From Candidatus Cloacimonadales bacterium (lineage in GTDB: Bacteria; Cloacimonadota; Cloacimonadia; Cloacimonadales; JAIOQZ01): a stretch of 64,000 nucleotides of DNA. The translations under genes were made by a program, and so were the position numbers. Shown piece by piece: positions 8,707-38,374 of the stretch (position 1 is its first letter; each line of letters opens with the position of its first letter). The stretch spans positions 234,383 through 298,382 of the forward strand of contig OY762463.1 of the NCBI GenBank assembly GCA_963665815.1, read 5' to 3'. The notes under the pieces were generated by a model. It saw only the letters and a list, made by a program, of their open reading frames with translations. It had not been told where the DNA came from and did no database searches.

Positions 8707-11700
8707 TTACTCAAAATAAGTTCTTCTTAATGAAACAATAACCTCAGTACCTTCATCTATTTCTGATTTCATGTTTACCTGACCCTTCAGTTTCTCAGAG
8801 ATTCTCTTTACAATACTGAGTCCCAGTCCCTCCCCTTCTACTTCAGGAATTGTTCCTGCCCTGTAAAATACATTCCAGATTCGTTCCATATTTTTAGCTT
8901 CAATACCAATACCGTTGTCACAAACATGGTAATTATTGAAAAGACTATCCTTTTCAGCAAAAATGTTTATTGTAAGATTTTGTCCTCTTTTTCGATACTT
9001 GATACAATTTGATACTATGTTAGAGAACAACTGATTCAAGAGATTCTTGTCTGCATAGCAGTTAGGAAGCTCTTCAACACGGACTTCAATTCCATACTTA
9101 TCAATTTCATATTTGTAACTGTTCAGGACTGACTGTACAAATTCATTCATATCAATATTCTCAACACTGATCGGTGCTCGCCCGGTTCTGGAAATTTTAA
9201 GAAGACCCTTGATAAGAATATCCATTTTCTTTACATTGTTGAATATGAAATTCATGGATTGTGGCAACTGATTAACTGTAATATCCTGAAACTCATCGTC
9301 ATTATATAATTCAAGGCATTTCTCTTTCACGATTTCGGAAATTTTAAATGAATGTCTGCTGATTCTGTCGGTAAATCCCTGAATGTTAACAAGTGGAGAT
9401 CTTAAATCGTGTGATGCAACATACAGATAATTTTCAAGCTCCTTGTTCTTCTCTTTTATTAAAGCTTCGGCCTTCTTTTTCTCTGTTATGTTCAATCTTG
9501 TACCACAAATTCTGGATGGTTTTCCATCTGATGTAAAGCTGACAATTTTACCTCTATCTAATACCCATATCCATTTCCCTGATTTATGTTGGAGTCTTAA
9601 TTCACACTCAAACATATCGTTAATCCCATTAACATGATCCTCGAATTTTTGTAAAACAGAGCTCAAATCTTTCTCATGTATTAACTCCTTCCAGAATGCT
9701 GGATTATCTCCGATCTCATCGACTGTATAACCGAGCATTTCAGCATATCGGTCATTTATGATTAATGAATTTGCAGGAATATCTATATCCCAGCTGCCAA
9801 GATCAGCCCCTTTCAATGCCAGATCAAGTCTTTTACTGCTTTCTTTTAAGAGGAATTCCGATTGTTTTCTATCGGATACATCTCGCACTAATTCTACAAG
9901 AAATTCAATGTTTCCGTGATTATCAAGTATCGGGAGTATCCGGAGATCAATCCATATATTGTTATCAAGATGTATTTCTTCCTGATATGGTTCTTTCGTT
10001 TCAATAACTTTGCTGACTTTGCATTCGGGGCAAATTGCATCAAAATTACGATATGCTTTGTAACACTTTGTACCGTTTTTTCGATTTACAGGTGAAATAT
10101 TAAATACACCATTCCAATTACTAAAAATTATGTTCATATCAAGATCATGCAGAGAAACGAGATCAGGGACAGTTTTCAGTACTTTATCAAATCTTTCTTC
10201 ATTTTTACGAATTGTTTCATGAAGTTTATATTCCTGAGTTACATCTCTGAACACTAAAACTACTCCTGTAACAGCTCCGGTTGAGTCTTTTATCGGTGCT
10301 GCTGAATCAGCTATCTGATACTCAAGACCATCTCTGGATTTAAGGACTGTATGATTTGCCAGCCCCACTATTTTACCATTCTTAAGAACTTCCTCGACAG
10401 GGCATTCTGCCATTTCACCTGTCTGTGAGTTTGAAATATTGAAAACCTCTGAAAGCATTTTACCGGAGGCTTCATCAGATATCCAACCTGTAAGTAATTC
10501 AGCTATTGGATTCATCCGGTCAATTTTTCCCTGATAGTCGGTTGTAATGACGGCATCTCCAATTGAATTTAGGGTTGTACTAAGTTTTTCAGCCATCTGT
10601 ACAAATTTGTTTCTATCTTTACTTAATTTTTCAATTAAAAGCGCGATTATCACACTTCCAACAAAAATTATGAAAAAGCTCATCATTCTCAATATAATAT
10701 GATGTAAATCATGCTTAATCAGGAATAGATTCAGAATATTAGCACCTTCTTTATTAAACCAGAAGTAATACATCAATACATCAGTAATCCAGACTAAGAT
10801 TGCTATGGTGACACCTGCAAACAAAGTGTTAAGTGATGCCCTGGTAGAGAATAACTTGCTGAATCCGGAAAGATCACGAATATATTCCGATATTGCAAGT
10901 AAATACAGGCAAATAATAAGTATTATGAATATTGATATAAGTATTAAGTTATCGGCTATAATTTTATGTTGATGTTCATCTAAAGCCCATTTTTCAATTA
11001 TTTTATTATAGTCTTCGGTTAATGTATTGTTTTCATTTTCCATGAAGTTGTTTATTCTGTTCAGTATATTTTTATCGGAAGAACTTGCTGAGGCAAAATA
11101 TGTTTCAAATGGATGGAAAACAATGGCAGTGTGAATAGCTTGCTTATCGATGAATTTCACATTTAGTAAAGTCATTCTATCACCAATACCACAATCAAAC
11201 TTTTTACTGATAATACCTTTAAACATTTCCGGGTAATTTTCAACTTCAATCAATGTATATTTGATGTTAAACTTATCGGCAAATTCAATAAAGTGATTCT
11301 TAAACATGGATTTTTTTACATATGCAACATTTTTACCGTTAATATCTAACATAGACTCTATTGCATTGTCAGTACTGGAAAATACTGTTCCCCAACTGGA
11401 TATTACAGGAATTTCAGAAAAATCAAGTAAACTGTCTCTTTGCTGTGTATAGCCTATAGGAACCATAATATCAGCTTTCCCGGTGGAAACTTGCTTTAGT
11501 GCATTCGAAAATGTTGTGCTGTGATATGATAATTTCCAGTTGTTTTTTTTCCCTGTTTCTTCAAGGATATCTTTCGCCAGACCACGTGTTTGCCCATCTT
11601 TATCAGTAAAAATGACAGGTTTTTTCTCGAAGTAAACAACATCTACATTTATTGATAAGATAACTGAGAACGAAAACAGTATTATCAGTGCAGTAAAGAG

Positions 11701-31839: not shown

Positions 31840-32169
31840 CTACTTCCTCCATTTACCGAAGATATTAAGGTGTCTCAGAGAGAGGGCTAATCCACGCATC
31901 ACTATGAAGCCAAGGATGAAGATAAAAGCGATATACACTAATTTATCATTAAAACTGAATAGTCTTTTGAAAACGCAAATTATGTACGATAGCTGAAGAG
32001 CAACAATGAAAACAATCCCAAGGATAAAAGAAACAGAAACCAGAGTCGATAACTCAGCCTTCTTGTCTTTCATGTAGCCAATTATCATCCTGCAGGCGAG
32101 AAAACCACCACCAATGAAAATAACAGCAAATAGACGATCTCTGATCAAGTCACTCCAGAATGCACACAT
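31840..32169 (-). CDS. small hypothetical membrane protein (3 TM)
   Basis: Three hydrophobic segments; AAGGA upstream on the minus strand. Confidence 0.55.
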   Translation of the reverse strand: MCAFWSDLIRDRLFAVIFIGGGFLACRMIIGYMKDKKAELSTLVSVSFILGIVFIVALQLSYIICVFKRLFSFNDKLVYIAFIFILGFIVMRGLALSLRHLNIFGKWRK

Positions 32170-32319
32170 ACCTCAGTCCTTTTTTGAATTATAAGATTAT
32201 CATAATAGCACATGATTAATTTATAGATGGTTGGTTGTTACTTGTCAAGGGAAATGCATATAATCGTTTTTTTTCCAACAAACATTTGTTTCTAATGTAT
32301 TTTTATAGTTAATAGTAAC

Positions 32320-32645
32320 TTATGTCGCAGATTTTCCCGACTTTATCGGGACTCAATCAACTTAAATAATTGATATACTATGATATAAAAGCTCCCTGAC
32401 AGCCTGTGTAAAAACGCGAAATATCTTGAAATTTGCAATAATTTATGTCGCGATTTCGACCCCGCTCAATCAGCTTAACTTACTGAAAAAGTATGAGTTG
32501 TAAGCACCCTGATCGGAGTCGAAGGGTATTGGTTTTTGAGTGAATGAAGCGACGAAAATATGTTTTTACACACACTGTGAGCGGAGTCGAAGGGTATTGG
32601 TTTTAACTGATATAATCGACAAAAATTACGTTTTTGCATAGTCTA
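32320..32645. mobile_element. degenerate outer MITE/REP-bearing element, interrupted by a younger related MITE
   Basis: Collinear with the inner element (TTATGTCGC...CTCAATCA...CCCTGA|GCGGAGTCGAAGGGTATTGGTTTT...CGAC.AAAAT...GTTTTTGCATAGTCTA); left end not recognisable. Confidence 0.6.
32400..32577. mobile_element. 178-bp MITE with 16-bp TIRs and 3-bp TGA target-site duplication
   Basis: Left CAGCCTGTGTAAAAAC (32400-32415) vs right GTTTTTACACACACTG (32562-32577), 14/16 match; TGA at 32397-32399 and 32578-32580; internal inverted arms TTCGACCCCGCTCA / TGATCGGAGTCGAA. Confidence 0.8.
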
Positions 32646-32732
32646 CAAGAAGCTTAGACGCTAATCTTCCAGAAAATCCTTCCAGGGCTTCAGGACTTCT
32701 TAACGGGAATATTTTCCATACAGAGAAAGCCA

Positions 32733-32806
32733 GCTCCGTAGGCGTGATACTGTTTTCAGTATTTAGAGCAGACTACAAGATTTATGCTCCATGAGGAGCG
32801 ATCTGT
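32733..32806. repeat. two degenerate REP-like direct repeats (GCTCC-N-GGAGCGAT-CTGT type)
   Basis: GCTCCGTAGGCGTGATACTGT (32733) and GCTCCATGAGGAGCGATCTGT (32786), 53 bp apart. Confidence 0.5.
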
Positions 32807-32879
32807 GAATCCAAGAAGCGATTGATTACCGTCGCTGCTTTGGCATCCCAAAGAAAAATAATCCTCCCGAATTTTAACC

Positions 32880-32907
32880 TTGACAATTCCTGCGACCATC
32901 ATATTTA
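32880..32907 (+). promoter_or_regulatory. candidate sigma70 promoter of the pyr operon
   Basis: Perfect TTGACA at 32880-32885 with a weak AT-rich -10 (TATTTA) 16 bp downstream, about 100 nt before the PyrR site. Confidence 0.5.
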
Positions 32908-32980
32908 AGTATCAAATTAAGTCTAAAAATCTTATTCGGCAACAGTACAGTTACTTAGCCGAATCAATAAAAAATAACAG

Positions 32981-33011
32981 TCCTTTAAATTGTCCAGAGA
33001 GGCAAAAAGGA
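32981..33011 (+). promoter_or_regulatory. PyrR-binding RNA hairpin
   Basis: UCCUUUAAA-UUGUCCAGAGAGGCAA-AAAGGA matches the CUUUAA and ARUCCNGNGAGGYU consensus with a compensatory U-A pair; lies upstream of an operon that contains pyrR. Confidence 0.9.
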
Positions 33012-33017
33012 GGTGGA

Positions 33018-33041
33018 ATGCCACAGACAAAATACTATTGA
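33018..33041 (+). CDS. putative leader peptide MPQTKYY
   Basis: Near-perfect SD AAGGAGGTG (33007-33015) followed by ATG CCA CAG ACA AAA TAC TAT TGA. Confidence 0.55.
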   Translation: MPQTKYY

Positions 33042-33149
33042 GTAGAAACTCTTCTTAATCCAATTATGCAATTCATTTATTTAATATCTGTTTCATAATT
33101 CGGATATACCTTGCAAATCCCAAAATATTTCAAAAGAAAAGGAGAAAAA

Positions 33150-34088
33150 ATGCCAACTAAACATAATTTTCTGGGTCGCAGCATGTTCGATCTGGATACA
33201 TATAATGCCGATGAAATCTACTCAATCATGGAAGCATCCAAAGTGATGAAATCTATCAACTTAAGAGACTACAAAAAACTGCCTACACTCAAAGGTAAAA
33301 CAGTATGTACGCTCTTCTTCGAAAACTCAACAAGAACCCTGATGTCATTCGAACTTGCTGCAAACCGTCTCAGTGCAGACGTTGTCAGCTTCTCTGCAAA
33401 AACATCTTCATTGTCAAAAGGTGAATCACTTCAGGATACCATATATACACTCAACGCAATGGGTATCGACCTTTACATAATCCGCCACAGCTACCCGGGT
33501 TCACCACAACTTGTAAACAAGTACTCCGGTAAACCAATTCTTAATGGTGGTGACGGACGTCATGCTCACCCTACTCAGGCTCTGCTGGATATCTTCTCAA
33601 TCTGGGAAAAACGCGGACCGCTCAAAGGTATGAAAGTAACAATAGTCGGCGACATTGCTCACAGCCGTGTTGTACGTTCTAACCTTATCGGAATGAAAAC
33701 ACTCGGTGCGGAAGTAACCGTCTGCGGACCAAGAACACTCGTTCCGGGATTCCTCCCTGAAATTTACGGTTGTAAAGTTGAATACGATCTTAAAACTGCT
33801 CTCAAAGATGCAGATGTTGTAATGGGACTCAGAATGCAGATGGAAAGACAGGCTGACGGTCTGTTCCCAAGTCTGGAAGAATACACTAAAAACTATATCC
33901 TCTCCAAAGAATCAGTAAAATGGGCAAAAAAAGACGCTCTTATCATGCACCCGGGACCAATGAATCGCGGTATTGAGATTCTTCCGGAAATCGCAGACAG
34001 CTCTAACTCGGTTATTATTGAACAGGTTGCAAACGGTGTTGCCGTACGTATGGCTCTGCTGTTCTTAATGCTCGGTGGAAAGTTATAA
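33150..34088 (+). CDS. pyrB: aspartate carbamoyltransferase catalytic subunit
   Basis: FFENSTRT, HPTQALLD and MHPGPMNRG motifs; ATG 33150 after AAGGAG. Confidence 0.97.
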   Translation: MPTKHNFLGRSMFDLDTYNADEIYSIMEASKVMKSINLRDYKKLPTLKGKTVCTLFFENSTRTLMSFELAANRLSADVVSFSAKTSSLSKGESLQDTIYTLNAMGIDLYIIRHSYPGSPQLVNKYSGKPILNGGDGRHAHPTQALLDIFSIWEKRGPLKGMKVTIVGDIAHSRVVRSNLIGMKTLGAEVTVCGPRTLVPGFLPEIYGCKVEYDLKTALKDADVVMGLRMQMERQADGLFPSLEEYTKNYILSKESVKWAKKDALIMHPGPMNRGIEILPEIADSSNSVIIEQVANGVAVRMALLFLMLGGKL

Positions 34089-34102: not shown

Positions 34103-35371
34103 ATGACTATATTAATTAAAAACGGAAACGTATTCATAGATGGTAAATTTGTAAAAAAAGACATACTCATAGAAAATGACAAAATCAAAGCTGTAGAAGA
34201 CTGCATTGAACAGGAAGCTGAAAAAGTCATCGATGCTGCCGGTAAATTTGTATCTCCGGGTTTCGTTGATCTTCATGCTCACTTGAGAGATCCGGGGCAA
34301 ACCTACAAAGAAGACATTGTAACAGGAACAAAATCAGCGGCTAAAGGTGGATTCACCACAATCTGTGCTATGCCAAACACAGATCCTGTTGTAGACAATA
34401 TTGCAACTGTTGAGTATATCCGCAGAAAAGCTCACGATCTTGGTTCATGTAAAGTTGGAGTTATCGGAGCACTGACAAAGAAATCCGAAGGCAAAGAGAT
34501 TGCAGAAGTTGCTACCATGCTTGAAGGTGGAATTGTGGCTGTAAGCGATGATGGTAAATGTGTTCAGAACGCAAAACTTAAGTTCAACGCCATGAAGTAT
34601 GTATCTGCTTTCAACATACCTGTTATTACTCACCCGGAAGATTACAATCTTGCAGGAAGCGGACAGATCAACGCCGGTAAGATGTCCACAAAACTCGGAC
34701 TTGGCGGAATTCCTGCTCTGGCAGAAGAAATCATGATTTCCCGCGACATTATGTTTGCTGAGAAAACAAAATGTCACCTCCACATTGCGCATATATCCAC
34801 AGCAAAATCAATTCAGATGGTTAGAGATGCAAAAAAGAATGGTGTTAATATTACTGCTGAAGTAACACCTCACCACCTGGTTCTTAACGAAGAAGCAACA
34901 GCGACATTTGACACTAACACCAAGATGAAACCTCCTTTAAGAACAGAGAAAGACAGACTTGCCTGCATCAAAGGTCTTATTGACGGAACAATAGATGCAA
35001 TTGCAACAGATCATGCTCCTCATTCTGACTTTGAAAAAGAAAGAGAATACAACATAGCACCATTCGGTATAGTTGGCTTCGAGCATGCTTTTTCTATTCT
35101 TTATGATAGACTCGTTTCGCAAAACATAATCAGTTTTGAAACACTTATAGATAAAATGGCTGTTTCTCCTGCCAGATTCCTCAAACTTAATTCAGGCGAG
35201 ATCAAAGAAGGAAAAACAGCAGATATCACAATACTTAACACAGAAGCTGAAACACTTCTCACAAAAGACAATATGCTTTCAAAATCATATAACACACCGT
35301 TTATTGATACACCTATGAAAGGTCTGGTGGAAACCACAATCTGTGATGGGAAAATAACATGGCAGGCGTAA
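34103..35371 (+). CDS. pyrC: dihydroorotase
   Basis: DLHAHLRDPG, MPNT, KMKPPLR and ATDHAPH motifs. Confidence 0.96.
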   Translation: MTILIKNGNVFIDGKFVKKDILIENDKIKAVEDCIEQEAEKVIDAAGKFVSPGFVDLHAHLRDPGQTYKEDIVTGTKSAAKGGFTTICAMPNTDPVVDNIATVEYIRRKAHDLGSCKVGVIGALTKKSEGKEIAEVATMLEGGIVAVSDDGKCVQNAKLKFNAMKYVSAFNIPVITHPEDYNLAGSGQINAGKMSTKLGLGGIPALAEEIMISRDIMFAEKTKCHLHIAHISTAKSIQMVRDAKKNGVNITAEVTPHHLVLNEEATATFDTNTKMKPPLRTEKDRLACIKGLIDGTIDAIATDHAPHSDFEKEREYNIAPFGIVGFEHAFSILYDRLVSQNIISFETLIDKMAVSPARFLKLNSGEIKEGKTADITILNTEAETLLTKDNMLSKSYNTPFIDTPMKGLVETTICDGKITWQA

Positions 35372-36114
35372 AGAACGTAATCTGCAAAATTACCGAAAAT
35401 CAGATTCTCAATGACAGTTATTTTATTCTGACAGTCAAGAGAAGCAAAGAATTTGGAGAAATCCTACCGGGGCAGTTCTTCGAGATGAGACTTCCGGACG
35501 ATGAGTATTCTCTGAAAATACCAATCAGTGTTTATGATGCTAATCCTTTTATCATCAGATTTATGATCAAGACAATTGGTGGAGGTACTGATTACCTTTC
35601 TACACTCGAGGAAGGAACTGAACTTGAGATTATGGGACCTCTCGGCAACTCATTCCCAATGGTAGAAGATAAGAATGTTCTGCTTATCAGTGGTGGAATT
35701 GGTTATGCACCACTTTACTATCTTGAGAATGAACTTTCCAAAAACAACAGCGTACAGTGGATACATGGAGGTAGAAGCGAAGAAGACATCTTTGATGCTG
35801 ACATGATTGCTACCGATGACGGATCCATCGGGCACAAAGGTTTTGTAACAGACCTGATCGATGAAGCTCTTAAAGTTGGTAAACCTGATGTTATATACTG
35901 TTGCGGACCTGATATAATGATGAAAAACTGCTACAATCTGCTTAAAGATACAGGTATTCCGTTCTATGTTTCACTCGAAGAATACATGGCGTGCGGAATA
36001 GGGGTCTGTTATGGTTGCGTTGTTAAAATCAAAGAAGGTGACGAAGCTGTGTTCAAAACTGTCTGCAAAGACGGACCGATCTTTGATGCTTCAAAGGTGG
36101 TATGGGATGATTAA
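35359..36114 (+). CDS. pyrK: dihydroorotate dehydrogenase electron transfer subunit
   Basis: GPLGN, GGIGYAP, CGP and MACGIGVCYGC...CKDGP motifs. Confidence 0.95.
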   Translation: MAGVKNVICKITENQILNDSYFILTVKRSKEFGEILPGQFFEMRLPDDEYSLKIPISVYDANPFIIRFMIKTIGGGTDYLSTLEEGTELEIMGPLGNSFPMVEDKNVLLISGGIGYAPLYYLENELSKNNSVQWIHGGRSEEDIFDADMIATDDGSIGHKGFVTDLIDEALKVGKPDVIYCCGPDIMMKNCYNLLKDTGIPFYVSLEEYMACGIGVCYGCVVKIKEGDEAVFKTVCKDGPIFDASKVVWDD

Positions 36115-37012
36115 AACAAAACTTGGTAAACTCCATCTTGATAATCCTGTAACTGTTGCCTCCGGAACATTTGGAAAGGAATTTGGTGATCTTATAGATC
36201 TGAACAGACTTGGTGCTATTGTCACCAAGACCATTACAATGGAACCTAAAGCCGGAAATCCTACTCCAAGGCTGTATGAAACAGAAGCGGGACTGCTGAA
36301 CTCAATAGGACTTCAGAATCCGGGATTGAAAAGCTTTATGCAGGATGTACTTCCTGAGTACGAAAAAATAGATTCTCCTTTACTTGTCAGTTTTTCAGGA
36401 TCAACCACAGATGAATTCTGTAAAATGGTGGAGGAAATGGAATCTTCAGATGTAATTAAGGGCTATGAAGTTAATGTATCCTGTCCTAATGTGGAAAACG
36501 AAGGAATAGCTTTCGGGACAGATCCGGAAGTTGTAAATAAACTTACAAAAGCACTTTCAGAAAGAACAGACAAAGAACTTATAATAAAACTTACTCCAAA
36601 TGTCACAAATATCATGGAAATTGCCAAAGCAGCAGAGGAAGGTGGGGCAGATAGTCTTGCACTGATTAACACACTTCTCGGTATGGCAATAGACTGGGAA
36701 ACGGGTAAAACCAGAATTGCCAGAGGTATTTCCGGATATTCAGGTATTGCAATCAAACCTGTTGCCCTTCAGAATGTATACAGAGTTCATAAAGCTGTGA
36801 ATATACCTATTCTCGCTATGGGGGGAATATTCAACTGGCAGGATGCAATGGAATTTTTCTATGCCGGAGCAAGTGCAATTGCAGTAGGAACAGCGAACTT
36901 TGTTAACCCGGAAGCCACAATATCAATAATAGACTCACTGACAAGATACTTTGACAAAAATGATATAATACTGGAAAATGTCATTGGAAAAGTATCAGGA
37001 ATAAGAAGTTAA
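36107..37012 (+). CDS. pyrD: dihydroorotate dehydrogenase class 1B catalytic subunit
   Basis: ASGTFG, NSIGLQNPG, catalytic NVSCPN, KLTPNV and LINT motifs. Confidence 0.96.
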   Translation: MIKTKLGKLHLDNPVTVASGTFGKEFGDLIDLNRLGAIVTKTITMEPKAGNPTPRLYETEAGLLNSIGLQNPGLKSFMQDVLPEYEKIDSPLLVSFSGSTTDEFCKMVEEMESSDVIKGYEVNVSCPNVENEGIAFGTDPEVVNKLTKALSERTDKELIIKLTPNVTNIMEIAKAAEEGGADSLALINTLLGMAIDWETGKTRIARGISGYSGIAIKPVALQNVYRVHKAVNIPILAMGGIFNWQDAMEFFYAGASAIAVGTANFVNPEATISIIDSLTRYFDKNDIILENVIGKVSGIRS

Positions 37013-37031: not shown

Positions 37032-37580
37032 ATGGAAGAAAAAAAATATATAATGGATCAGGAATCAATCAACAGGGCACTTAAAAGAATGGCTCATGAA
37101 CTTCTCGAACAGAACAGAAATCACGAAAATCTTTATCTGGTAGGAATCCGTTCTCGCGGCGTACCTATGGCAAACAGAATTGCTTCTTATTTAAGCCAGA
37201 TTGAAAACATAGACATCCCTGTCGGTGTACTCGACATTACTTTGTACCGAGATGATCTTTCAACCATATCACACCAGCCTGTAATTAAAGGATCAGACAT
37301 CGGTTTTGATATCGAAGGCAAAAATATTGTACTGGTTGATGACGTACTATATACAGGAAGAACAGTAAGAGCTGCCTTTGATGCAATTCTTGACTTTGGA
37401 CGCCCACAGAAGATTCAACTTTGTGTACTTGTAGACAGAGGTCACAGAGAGCTTCCGATTAAAGCTAATTATGTTGGAAAAAACATTCCTACATCAGCAG
37501 AAGAAATAATCAAAGTGTGTTTTGATGAAACTGATGGAGAAGATTCAGTAAGAATCATGGTCAAAAAGCAAAAGGACTAA
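37032..37580 (+). CDS. pyrR: bifunctional pyr operon regulator / UPRTase PyrR
   Basis: [24 protein letters not shown] and DRGHRELPI motifs. Confidence 0.96.
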
Positions 37581-37585
37581 TATTT

Positions 37586-38374
37586 ATGACATTTTTCGAA
37601 AAATATAATAAATCACGTGTAAAAAATGCTTCTTATGTATGTGTCGGACTGGATTCCGATATTACTAAGCTACCTGAAGCTGTGAAGAACGAGAAAAACC
37701 CTATATTGACATTCAACAAAGCTATAATTGATGCAACTAAAGACTTTGTTGTATCCTATAAACCTAACCTTGCATTTTACCTTTCAGCAGGAAAAATGGG
37801 ACTTGATGCGTTATTTGAAACTTTTGCATATATTCCATCAGATATTCCTGTGATTCTTGATGCTAAATTCGGAGACATCGGCAACACAATGTTCCAATAC
37901 GGTAAATTCGCATTTGAACAGGTAAAAGCCGATGCCCTGACAGTCAATCCGCTTATGGGAGAAGATGTTGACAAGTCCATAGAAAGCTTTGAAGGAAAAA
38001 TGAAATTCCTCCTCTGTCTCACATCAAATCCGGGAGCAAAAGACTATCTTATGCCTAATGAGCTGTATACTAAAATCGCTGCTGCTATTGGTGGAAAGAA
38101 AGATCTTGGAGCTGTTGTCGGTGGAACAAACTCTGAACAGCTGGAAAAAGTAAGATCTCTCATGCCTGAAACGATATTCCTTATTCCTGGGATAGGTGCC
38201 CAGGGTGGTAATCTTGAACTTGTATGCCAGAAAGCTGCTGCATCAAAAGATGATGCGAGATTTGTTATTAACTCTTCACGAGGAATAATCTTTGCAGATT
38301 CATCTGTAGACTTTGCAGAAACTGCAGCAAAGAAAGCGGATGAGCTTCGTAAAGCTATAAATGAAAATCTGTAG
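37586..38374 (+). CDS. pyrF: orotidine-5'-phosphate decarboxylase (type 2)
   Basis: CVGLD, KPNLAFY, DAKFGDIGNT, PGIGAQGG and NSSRGII motifs. Confidence 0.96.
   Translation: MTFFEKYNKSRVKNASYVCVGLDSDITKLPEAVKNEKNPILTFNKAIIDATKDFVVSYKPNLAFYLSAGKMGLDALFETFAYIPSDIPVILDAKFGDIGNTMFQYGKFAFEQVKADALTVNPLMGEDVDKSIESFEGKMKFLLCLTSNPGAKDYLMPNELYTKIAAAIGGKKDLGAVVGGTNSEQLEKVRSLMPETIFLIPGIGAQGGNLELVCQKAAASKDDARFVINSSRGIIFADSSVDFAETAAKKADELRKAINENL

Follow-up and report, generated by a model that had tools for sequence, protein, structure and literature searches.

A PyrR-type hairpin, a seven-codon leader open reading frame and a candidate translational relay upstream of pyrB in Cloacimonadota

The pyr leader and its hairpin

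The DNA analyzed here, a 64,000-nucleotide (nt) stretch from a Candidatus Cloacimonadales bacterium (hereafter the window), is AT-rich (34-40% GC) and carries on its plus strand a pyr operon whose genes, as assigned by Pfam and NCBIfam searches, follow each other in the order pyrB-C-K-D-R-F. The closest relatives of its PyrB protein bear the source names Cloacimonadota or Cloacimonetes. The first gene, pyrB (33150-34088), encodes the catalytic subunit of aspartate carbamoyltransferase (NCBIfam NF002032, 375 bits; Pfam OTCace_N and OTCace) and is preceded by about 1 kb of non-coding DNA. At the downstream end of this non-coding stretch lies the leader that is the subject of this report. It consists of a putative PyrR-binding hairpin, an open reading frame (ORF) of only seven sense codons (the mini-ORF) and a segment complementary to the Shine-Dalgarno sequence (SD) of pyrB. 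The regulator gene pyrR (37032-37580; NCBIfam PyrR equivalog NF003549, 250.5 bits, cut-off 138) is located within its own putative target operon. Leader and genes are all on the plus strand.

The hairpin (32981-33011) has a 6-bp lower stem, in which UCCUUU (32981-32986) pairs with AAAGGA (33006-33011), a bulge on the 5' side, and a 5-bp upper stem closing the loop CAGAGA. This hexaloop fits the UCCAGAGAGG-type consensus, and the combination of stem, 5' bulge and loop is that of the Rfam family RF00515. A scan of the whole window with RF00515 returned nothing at the gathering threshold of 54 bits. In a search of 1.2 kb, the family model, which the initial annotation of this DNA had named as a check, reached 30.1 bits against that cut-off (E 0.071): the binding-loop half aligned near-perfectly and with high posterior probability, and the terminator half was marked as non-pairing. 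The hairpin half is thus recovered and the family threshold missed. RF00515 likewise gave no PyrR match at E<=1 on six related Cloacimonadota loci. Because Rfam missed both the window and its relatives, we built a hairpin-only covariance model (R1) from six related genomes, leaving out the window as an independent test. R1 matched the window hairpin with 37.8 bits (E 8e-7), the runner-up in the 64 kb scoring 13.7 bits, so that the canonical PyrR-type hairpin proposed in the initial annotation is the only good match in the stretch. In the alignment of all seven sequences, 92.9% of the cells are paired, the lower stem is invariant, and four of the five upper-stem pairs show compensatory changes. 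The hairpin lies 138 nt upstream of pyrB, the first gene of an operon that encodes pyrR. Judging from the model score, the covariation and the presence of pyrR in the operon, we take it to be a real PyrR site, to which PyrR would be expected to bind.

The 3' strand of the hairpin, AAAGGA, doubles as the beginning of an SD. As read from the sequence, this leader SD, AAGGAGGUG (33007-33015), has its first 5 nt within the hairpin stem and serves the mini-ORF MPQTKYY* (33018-33041; ATG at 33018, TGA at 33039-33041) rather than pyrB. The pyrB ATG (33150) follows 108 nt after the mini-ORF stop and has a GGAG of its own (33141-33144), 5 nt upstream. The gap between GGAG and ATG in the leader is also 5 nt, which matches the spacing at the genuine pyrB starts of four relatives (L002, L003, L004, and L006). 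The features that the initial annotation had listed are all present where it placed them, and the lack of a terminator behind the hairpin holds as well: no terminator-like site was found in 32100-33400, against 0.9 expected, and a second scan of our own detected no terminator in the window, L001 or L005, the last two being relatives of the same layout as the window (see below).

Two other starts in the leader were considered and rejected. An in-frame ORF of 53 amino acids (aa) (32880-33041) would begin inside a TTGACA box, and the reading frame ahead of the leader ATG lacks conservation, extending for 52, 10, and 6 codons in the window, L001 and L005, respectively. A GTG at 33013 follows the GGAG of the SD immediately, with a spacing of 0 nt. 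The first residues of the mini-ORF, MPQTK (33018-33035), resemble the N-terminus of PyrB, MPTKH (33150-33164), with similar codons after a one-codon gap. This likeness, which has no counterpart in L001 or L005, may be the trace of a duplication of the pyrB start.

In the minimum-energy fold of the window leader, the ribosome site of pyrB is paired with RNA that lies at and just behind the mini-ORF stop. The segment UCUUCUU (33050-33056), which we call the anti-SD, pairs with the pyrB SD strand AAGGAGA (33139-33145) in a helix of 7 bp that includes one G-U. Complementarity between these regions had been noted in the initial annotation; the pairing is real, and the register given there, CUCUUCUU with AAAAGGAG, contains a mismatch and is replaced by the better one above. 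The intervening stem proposed at the same time is likewise part of the minimum-energy fold: an inner stem-loop (33058-33105; stem 33058-33068 with 33095-33105) shortens the loop between anti-SD and SD. To that account we add a second helix, helix A, in which the mini-ORF stop codon and its flanks (33038-33044; paired at 33038-33040 and 33042-33044) pair with 33151-33156, namely the UG of the pyrB start codon plus the 4 nt behind it. In pairing with the pyrB SD, the segment behind the stop outdoes 99.1% of 2000 shuffled sequences and 96.7% of 1190 genomic 17-mers.

Two leader layouts in Cloacimonadota

A scan of genome contigs yielded at least 80 loci, at least seven of them from Cloacimonadota (L001-L007), with upstream sequence available in six of these (L001-L006). 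The leaders of the six fall into two layouts. In the direct type (L002, L003, L004, and L006), the start codon that lies 5 nt behind the hairpin strand AAAGGAG is that of pyrB, an ORF of 310-312 codons, so that direct occlusion of the pyrB SD by the hairpin is present in these four loci and absent from the window. In the relay type, found in L001 and L005 (two of six) as in the window, the hairpin and AAAGGAGG are followed after 5-6 nt by the ATG of an ORF of 7 (window), 7 (L001) or 6 codons (L005), and then by an anti-SD. Beyond hairpin, SD and ATG, the three relay leaders have almost no sequence in common. The mini-ORF counterparts, MNLKTPR* in L001 and MLKLQT* in L005, encode peptides unrelated to MPQTKYY, and the spacers from the mini-ORF stop to pyrB are unrelated in sequence and measure 108, 45, and 60 nt in the window, L001 and L005. 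The short spacers leave L001 and L005 without an equivalent of the inner stem-loop.

All three relay leaders carry a segment behind the mini-ORF stop that is complementary to the SD of their own pyrB. The distance from the final base of the stop to the start of the anti-SD is 9, 0, and 1 nt in the window, L001 and L005, the order kept for all triplets of values below. In L001, ACCUCCAU shares its first base with the end of the stop and pairs with AUGGAGGU, and the final codons of the ORF additionally pair with positions +6 to +9 of pyrB; in L005, the partner of CGGAGGUU is AACCUCUG, 1 nt past the stop. For the cognate duplexes, the energies are -7.2, -12.8, and -11.2 kcal/mol, and in a 3x3 table of all anti-SDs against all SDs each cognate duplex is the best of its row and of its column. 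Among 2000 shuffles, the fraction that matched the cognate energy was 0.009, 0.002, and 0.002; among genomic 17-mers it was 0.033, 0/1189, and 0.003. Moreover, both strands differ between the genomes at the pairs directly flanking the GGAG core, with A-U, U-A, and C-G on its 5' side and A-U, G-C, and G-C on its 3' side. These two-sided changes are the strongest argument for selection on the pairing between anti-SD and SD. Complementarity between the post-stop segment and the downstream SD, a feature of translational coupling, thus exceeds chance and is conserved in this set of three. The initial annotation had interpreted the leader as a relay and had pointed to conservation of the upstream ORF and the anti-SD in relatives as a check. 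This comparison supports the interpretation at the level of sequence, since the layout recurs in two of six loci and the anti-SD covaries with its cognate SD.

A PyrB tree (16 rows, a single gene, with moderate support for the key node) suggests how the two layouts are related. Among the seven Cloacimonadota of known layout, L005 branches first. The window and L001 group together (95/93) as sister to the direct-type clade (100/100), and the node joining the two has a support of 89/90. Since one loss of the spacer is simpler on this tree than two gains, the relay layout seems to be ancestral and to have been maintained; the genomes that carry it do not form one clade on the tree.

L001 has the same operon order as the window, pyrR included. 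In L007, pyrR also follows pyrD, and the contig ends soon after pyrR. In the direct-type loci L002, L004, and L006, no pyrR was found after pyrD within the flank of about 2 kb that was examined; the position of the regulator gene thus differs by layout.

A candidate ribosome relay and its alternatives

We propose, with a probability of roughly 55%, that the leader acts as a protein-gated translational relay, in which a ribosome terminating on the mini-ORF unzips the mask over the pyrB ribosome site, and PyrR decides whether ribosomes load on the leader at all. By default, the pyrB ribosome site would be masked by RNA at or behind the stop of the 6-7-codon leader ORF; in the window, the anti-SD (33050-33056) would cover the SD (33139-33145) and the stop region (33038-33044) would cover the AUG region (33151-33156). 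When pyrimidines are low, the hairpin would not be held by PyrR, and a ribosome could load on the strong leader SD, translate the mini-ORF and terminate. The footprint and helicase activity of this ribosome would then cover or unwind the masking strand, giving the 30S subunit access to the pyrB SD. When uridine mono- or triphosphate (UMP/UTP) is high, a signal assigned here by analogy with PyrR of Bacillus, PyrR would clamp the hairpin and, with its 3' strand, the leader SD. Ribosomes would then be kept out, the mask would remain closed and pyrB would go untranslated, probably with the further effect that the operon RNA, bare of ribosomes, is exposed to decay or to Rho. With pyrR inside the operon, such a control loop would be autoregulatory.

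Folding calculations are consistent with the step that involves the ribosome. A ribosome-sized block placed at the mini-ORF stop codon raised the unpaired probability of the pyrB SD from 0.27 to 0.49, 0.52, and 0.37, whereas keeping the initiation region of the leader single-stranded gave 0.30, 0.27, and 0.27, compared to 0.27 in the free RNA. The block was taken to reach about 10 nt past the stop, a size assumed from bacterial footprints and toeprints. Such a block hides the entire anti-SD of L001 and L005 but, in the window, only helix A together with about 2 bp at the beginning of the anti-SD helix, which makes the window the least clean of the three relay leaders.

Several observations weigh against the proposed relay. 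The comparison comprises just three relay sequences, all from one phylum and probably of one origin. Some complementarity is cheap, because SDs are purine-rich and the spacers pyrimidine-rich, and for the extended duplexes the fraction of shuffles that did as well was only about 0.02. The mask in the window is modest (7 bp, one of them G-U), and its anti-SD, 9 nt past the stop, lies at the edge of what a terminating ribosome would reach, going by the assumed footprint. The modeled opening of the SD is partial (0.37-0.52). The fold of the whole window leader has a z-score of only -1.72, with 11 of 200 shuffles equally stable, and the accessibility of the pyrB SD, 0.285 by a crude measure, is the seventh lowest among the 34 window genes with an SD-like start. 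These thermodynamic measures, taken in the window alone, do not single out pyrB.

The mini-ORF could also be a relic, left from a former start of pyrB or of another first gene after an insertion or a partial duplication. PyrR binding at this site would then do little or tune mRNA stability, and the anti-SD would be a constitutive damper or a product of chance. The unremarkable accessibility of the window pyrB SD and the match of MPQTK to the PyrB N-terminus MPTKH, in which the codons agree after a one-codon gap, speak for such an origin, as do the four sister genomes in which the hairpin SD sits directly on pyrB, from which it follows that conversion between the layouts has occurred. However, the likeness to the PyrB N-terminus is confined to the window among the relay leaders, and the tree suggests that the relay layout is the older one. 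Furthermore, the ATG, the ORF length and the adjacency of stop and anti-SD have been kept across a split with about 22% difference in PyrB, in leaders that are unalike outside the hairpin, and a relic does not account for the compensatory changes in the anti-SD helix. We therefore regard this explanation as unlikely.

A little less likely still is a switch made of RNA only, in which the anti-SD alternates between the hairpin and leader-SD region and the pyrB SD, and the mini-ORF is incidental. Without PyrR, the anti-SD would pair upstream and leave pyrB free; the PyrR-stabilized hairpin would release the anti-SD onto the pyrB SD, a translational copy of the anti-antiterminator logic of Bacillus. 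Any anti-SD is indeed also complementary to the leader GGAGG, and in the nascent RNA of L001 (up to 5 nt past the anti-SD) the anti-SD pairs with GGAGAGG of the hairpin loop region at -11.4 kcal/mol. However, such an alternative fold appeared in only one of the three genomes, the nascent folds of the window and L005 retaining the PyrR hairpin. The full-length minimum-energy folds of all three contain both the hairpin and the anti-SD:SD helix, and forcing open the pyrB ribosome site costs 4.3, 5.7, and 5.1 kcal/mol. Since hairpin and mask coexist, PyrR binding is not necessary for closing the mask, and a ribosome-driven relay fits better than an RNA-only switch. Neither does such a switch explain why otherwise diverged leaders have retained an ATG at ribosome-site spacing and a stop beside the anti-SD.

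The least probable of the alternatives is that polarity through Rho or decay is the main output, i.e., that a PyrR-blocked leader exposes a naked C-over-G spacer on which Rho stops transcription before or within pyrB, with the anti-SD in a minor role: the spacers are G-poor (C:G of 17:7 in 94 nt, 12:2 in 31 nt, and 11:2 in 46 nt, the last 14 nt with the SD excluded), unlike the loci overall, which have G above C, but a 6-7-codon ORF ending 45-108 nt before pyrB could not shield the spacer even if translated, the 45-nt spacer of L001 is short for a Rho loading site (of assumed size), G-poverty is equally expected of a loop that needs to stay unstructured, and the covarying anti-SD is left unexplained.

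Operon context and comparison with known PyrR systems

Behind pyrB, the operon continues with pyrC (34103-35371), pyrK (35359-36114) and pyrD, all on the plus strand and assigned by Pfam and NCBIfam. The listed pyrD ORF runs from 36011 to 37012 and shares about 100 nt with pyrK; tblastn alignments of relatives start only at residue 33-34, and the real pyrD start is probably near 36110. pyrR is followed by pyrF (37586-38374, plus strand), encoding orotidine-5'-phosphate decarboxylase (NCBIfam TIGR02127, 200.5 bits). In L004, a tmRNA gene (9105-9453; Rfam, 181.7 bits) lies downstream of the pyr genes.

Upstream of the hairpin, TTGACA at 32880-32885 (plus strand) is a candidate -35 box of the pyr promoter. 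All seven Cloacimonadota sequences contain a single TTGAC within 160 nt upstream of the hairpin; a strict sigma-70 scan called no plus-strand promoter at this box. Between box and PyrR site, an extra 5' leader hairpin (UUCGGCA.../...GCCGAA, 32934-32964, plus strand) is predicted at -10.4 kcal/mol. We rejected it as a conserved part of the leader, since L001 has a different small hairpin there and L005 has none. The non-coding stretch before the leader also contains local direct repeats (32316-32604), a region without an Rfam match. A 32-nt repeat occurs in two copies (32505-32536 and 32573-32604) of 91% identity, 68 nt apart and separated by a 36-nt spacer, an arrangement with a superficial likeness to a two-repeat CRISPR remnant; its exact 23-nt core is absent from the rest of the window. 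A second repeat, with a 48-nt unit, has two copies of 75% identity, 113 nt apart. Beside the stretch, a hydrophobic ORF of 109 aa on the minus strand (31840-32169) has no Pfam or NCBIfam match.

Among known systems, the closest in its first step is that of Mycobacterium smegmatis, where PyrR reportedly represses translation through a hairpin over the SD of the first gene. The regulator family, a hairpin overlapping an SD for which PyrR and the ribosome compete, and the lack of a terminator are shared with the window leader. In the mycobacterial type, a layout shared by L002, L003, L004, and L006, the SD is that of the first real gene, whereas here it belongs to a seven-codon ORF, and the signal would be passed on through the anti-SD helix. 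The pyr operon of Thermus strain ZO5 is said to combine a leader peptide of tens of codons with a terminator under the control of PyrR. A PyrR site there reportedly also gates translation of a leader ORF, whose ribosome decides the fate of a downstream helix. In Thermus, this helix is an intrinsic terminator and the output transcriptional, whereas the relay leaders, with an ORF of 6-7 codons and without a U-tract, have a mask on a ribosome site in its place. The window accordingly has the short leader ORF on the hairpin SD, but not the overlap of the ORF with a terminator.

Beyond Cloacimonadota, R1 recognized 26 of the remaining 73 loci listed, with 28 further matches at E<=1. One match, in L058 (19.1 bits, 19% GC, ~3 kb from pyrB), was left out as probably spurious. 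Most of the matches in other phyla lie 630-900 nt upstream of pyrB, i.e., before pyrR. Among the 20 loci from other phyla that we examined, many show the Bacillus layout, in which the site is immediately followed by a GC-rich hairpin and a U-run. At least six of the 20 have, on the hairpin SD, a leader ORF of 18-35 codons that extends into or through an intrinsic terminator just before pyrR (L034, 4243-4397; L057, 681-901; L050, 4197-4387; L059, 151-342; L041, 4211-4362; L055, 4206-4333). The hosts include Calditrichaceae, Fermentithermobacillaceae, Chloroploca (two loci) and Syntrophaceae, and this layout, reportedly proposed for Thermus ZO5 in 1997, seems to be widespread. Two further loci have leaders of their own kind. 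In L046 (533-663; Calditrichia), the stop of an 8-9-codon ORF abuts the 5' strand of a strong terminator, an analogue of the mini-ORF with a transcriptional output; in L042 (3453-3610; Zixiibacteriota), a leader ORF of 37-38 codons ends at the pyrR ribosome site, with no terminator. The loci with leader ORF and terminator in other phyla show that PyrR-gated leader ORFs as such are no novelty. The new elements here are the SD mask, which replaces a terminator as output, and the minimal ORF.

A broader reading, which we put forward more tentatively than the relay itself, is that PyrR-gated leader ORFs form a broad and largely unannotated class, whose three outputs would be terminator bypass, unmasking of a sequestered ribosome site and direct start/stop coupling, depending on the element that a ribosome encounters as it finishes the ORF. 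The Cloacimonadota form may be the minimal one, in which the peptide has no function and the ORF does no more than bring in a ribosome; within this part of the phylum this form would be the ancestral state, which later collapsed to direct occlusion by loss of the spacer. The Rfam model, which includes the terminator, misses all six relatives at E<=1 and finds the window site at 32977-33012 only in a short-range search, so that terminator-less PyrR sites are likely to have gone unannotated, and pyrimidine regulation in uncultivated diderm phyla is probably under-annotated. A literature search, which had most subscription journals outside its scope and is therefore weak evidence, found no description that links PyrR with an upstream ORF, a leader ORF and an anti-SD, or with Cloacimonetes.

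The last step of the proposed relay has precedents as well. The leader-ORF translational attenuation of ermC and cat likewise relies on a ribosome on a short upstream ORF to melt structure at a downstream ribosome site. Leaders of the ermC type require drug-induced stalling, whereas plain termination would suffice here, and the input would be a protein clamp on the leader ribosome site. Bacterial coupling through upstream ORFs follows the same principle, and in the cases set out in one account either the ORFs overlap or the gap between them is below ~50 nt, and no RNA-binding protein that senses a metabolite gates them (PMC13285730). Bacillus subtilis, as reviews summarize it, uses PyrR for attenuation through an anti-antiterminator, an antiterminator and a terminator (Lu and Switzer, 1996). 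The window leader shares with it the PyrR equivalog, the binding-loop consensus and a site upstream of pyr genes; it differs in having neither terminator nor antiterminator, in its RF00515 score below the cut-off, and in its host, which is a diderm and not a Firmicute.

The element in the window would thus be a hybrid, combining the SD occlusion of the mycobacterial type with the control of a helix by a leader ribosome of the Thermus type, and taking its last step as in translational coupling. No new principle is involved, since PyrR occlusion, leader ORFs and anti-SD unmasking are each already known. If the relay works, it would be a natural protein-gated switch based on an upstream ORF, with a very small footprint of about 170 nt. 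One RNA-binding protein and one hairpin would have been rewired to a new output with the sensor unchanged, and the outputs seen for the PyrR hairpin would comprise a terminator in the Bacillus layout, direct SD occlusion in the mycobacterial type and the direct-type Cloacimonadota, and a ribosome relay in the window and its two counterparts.

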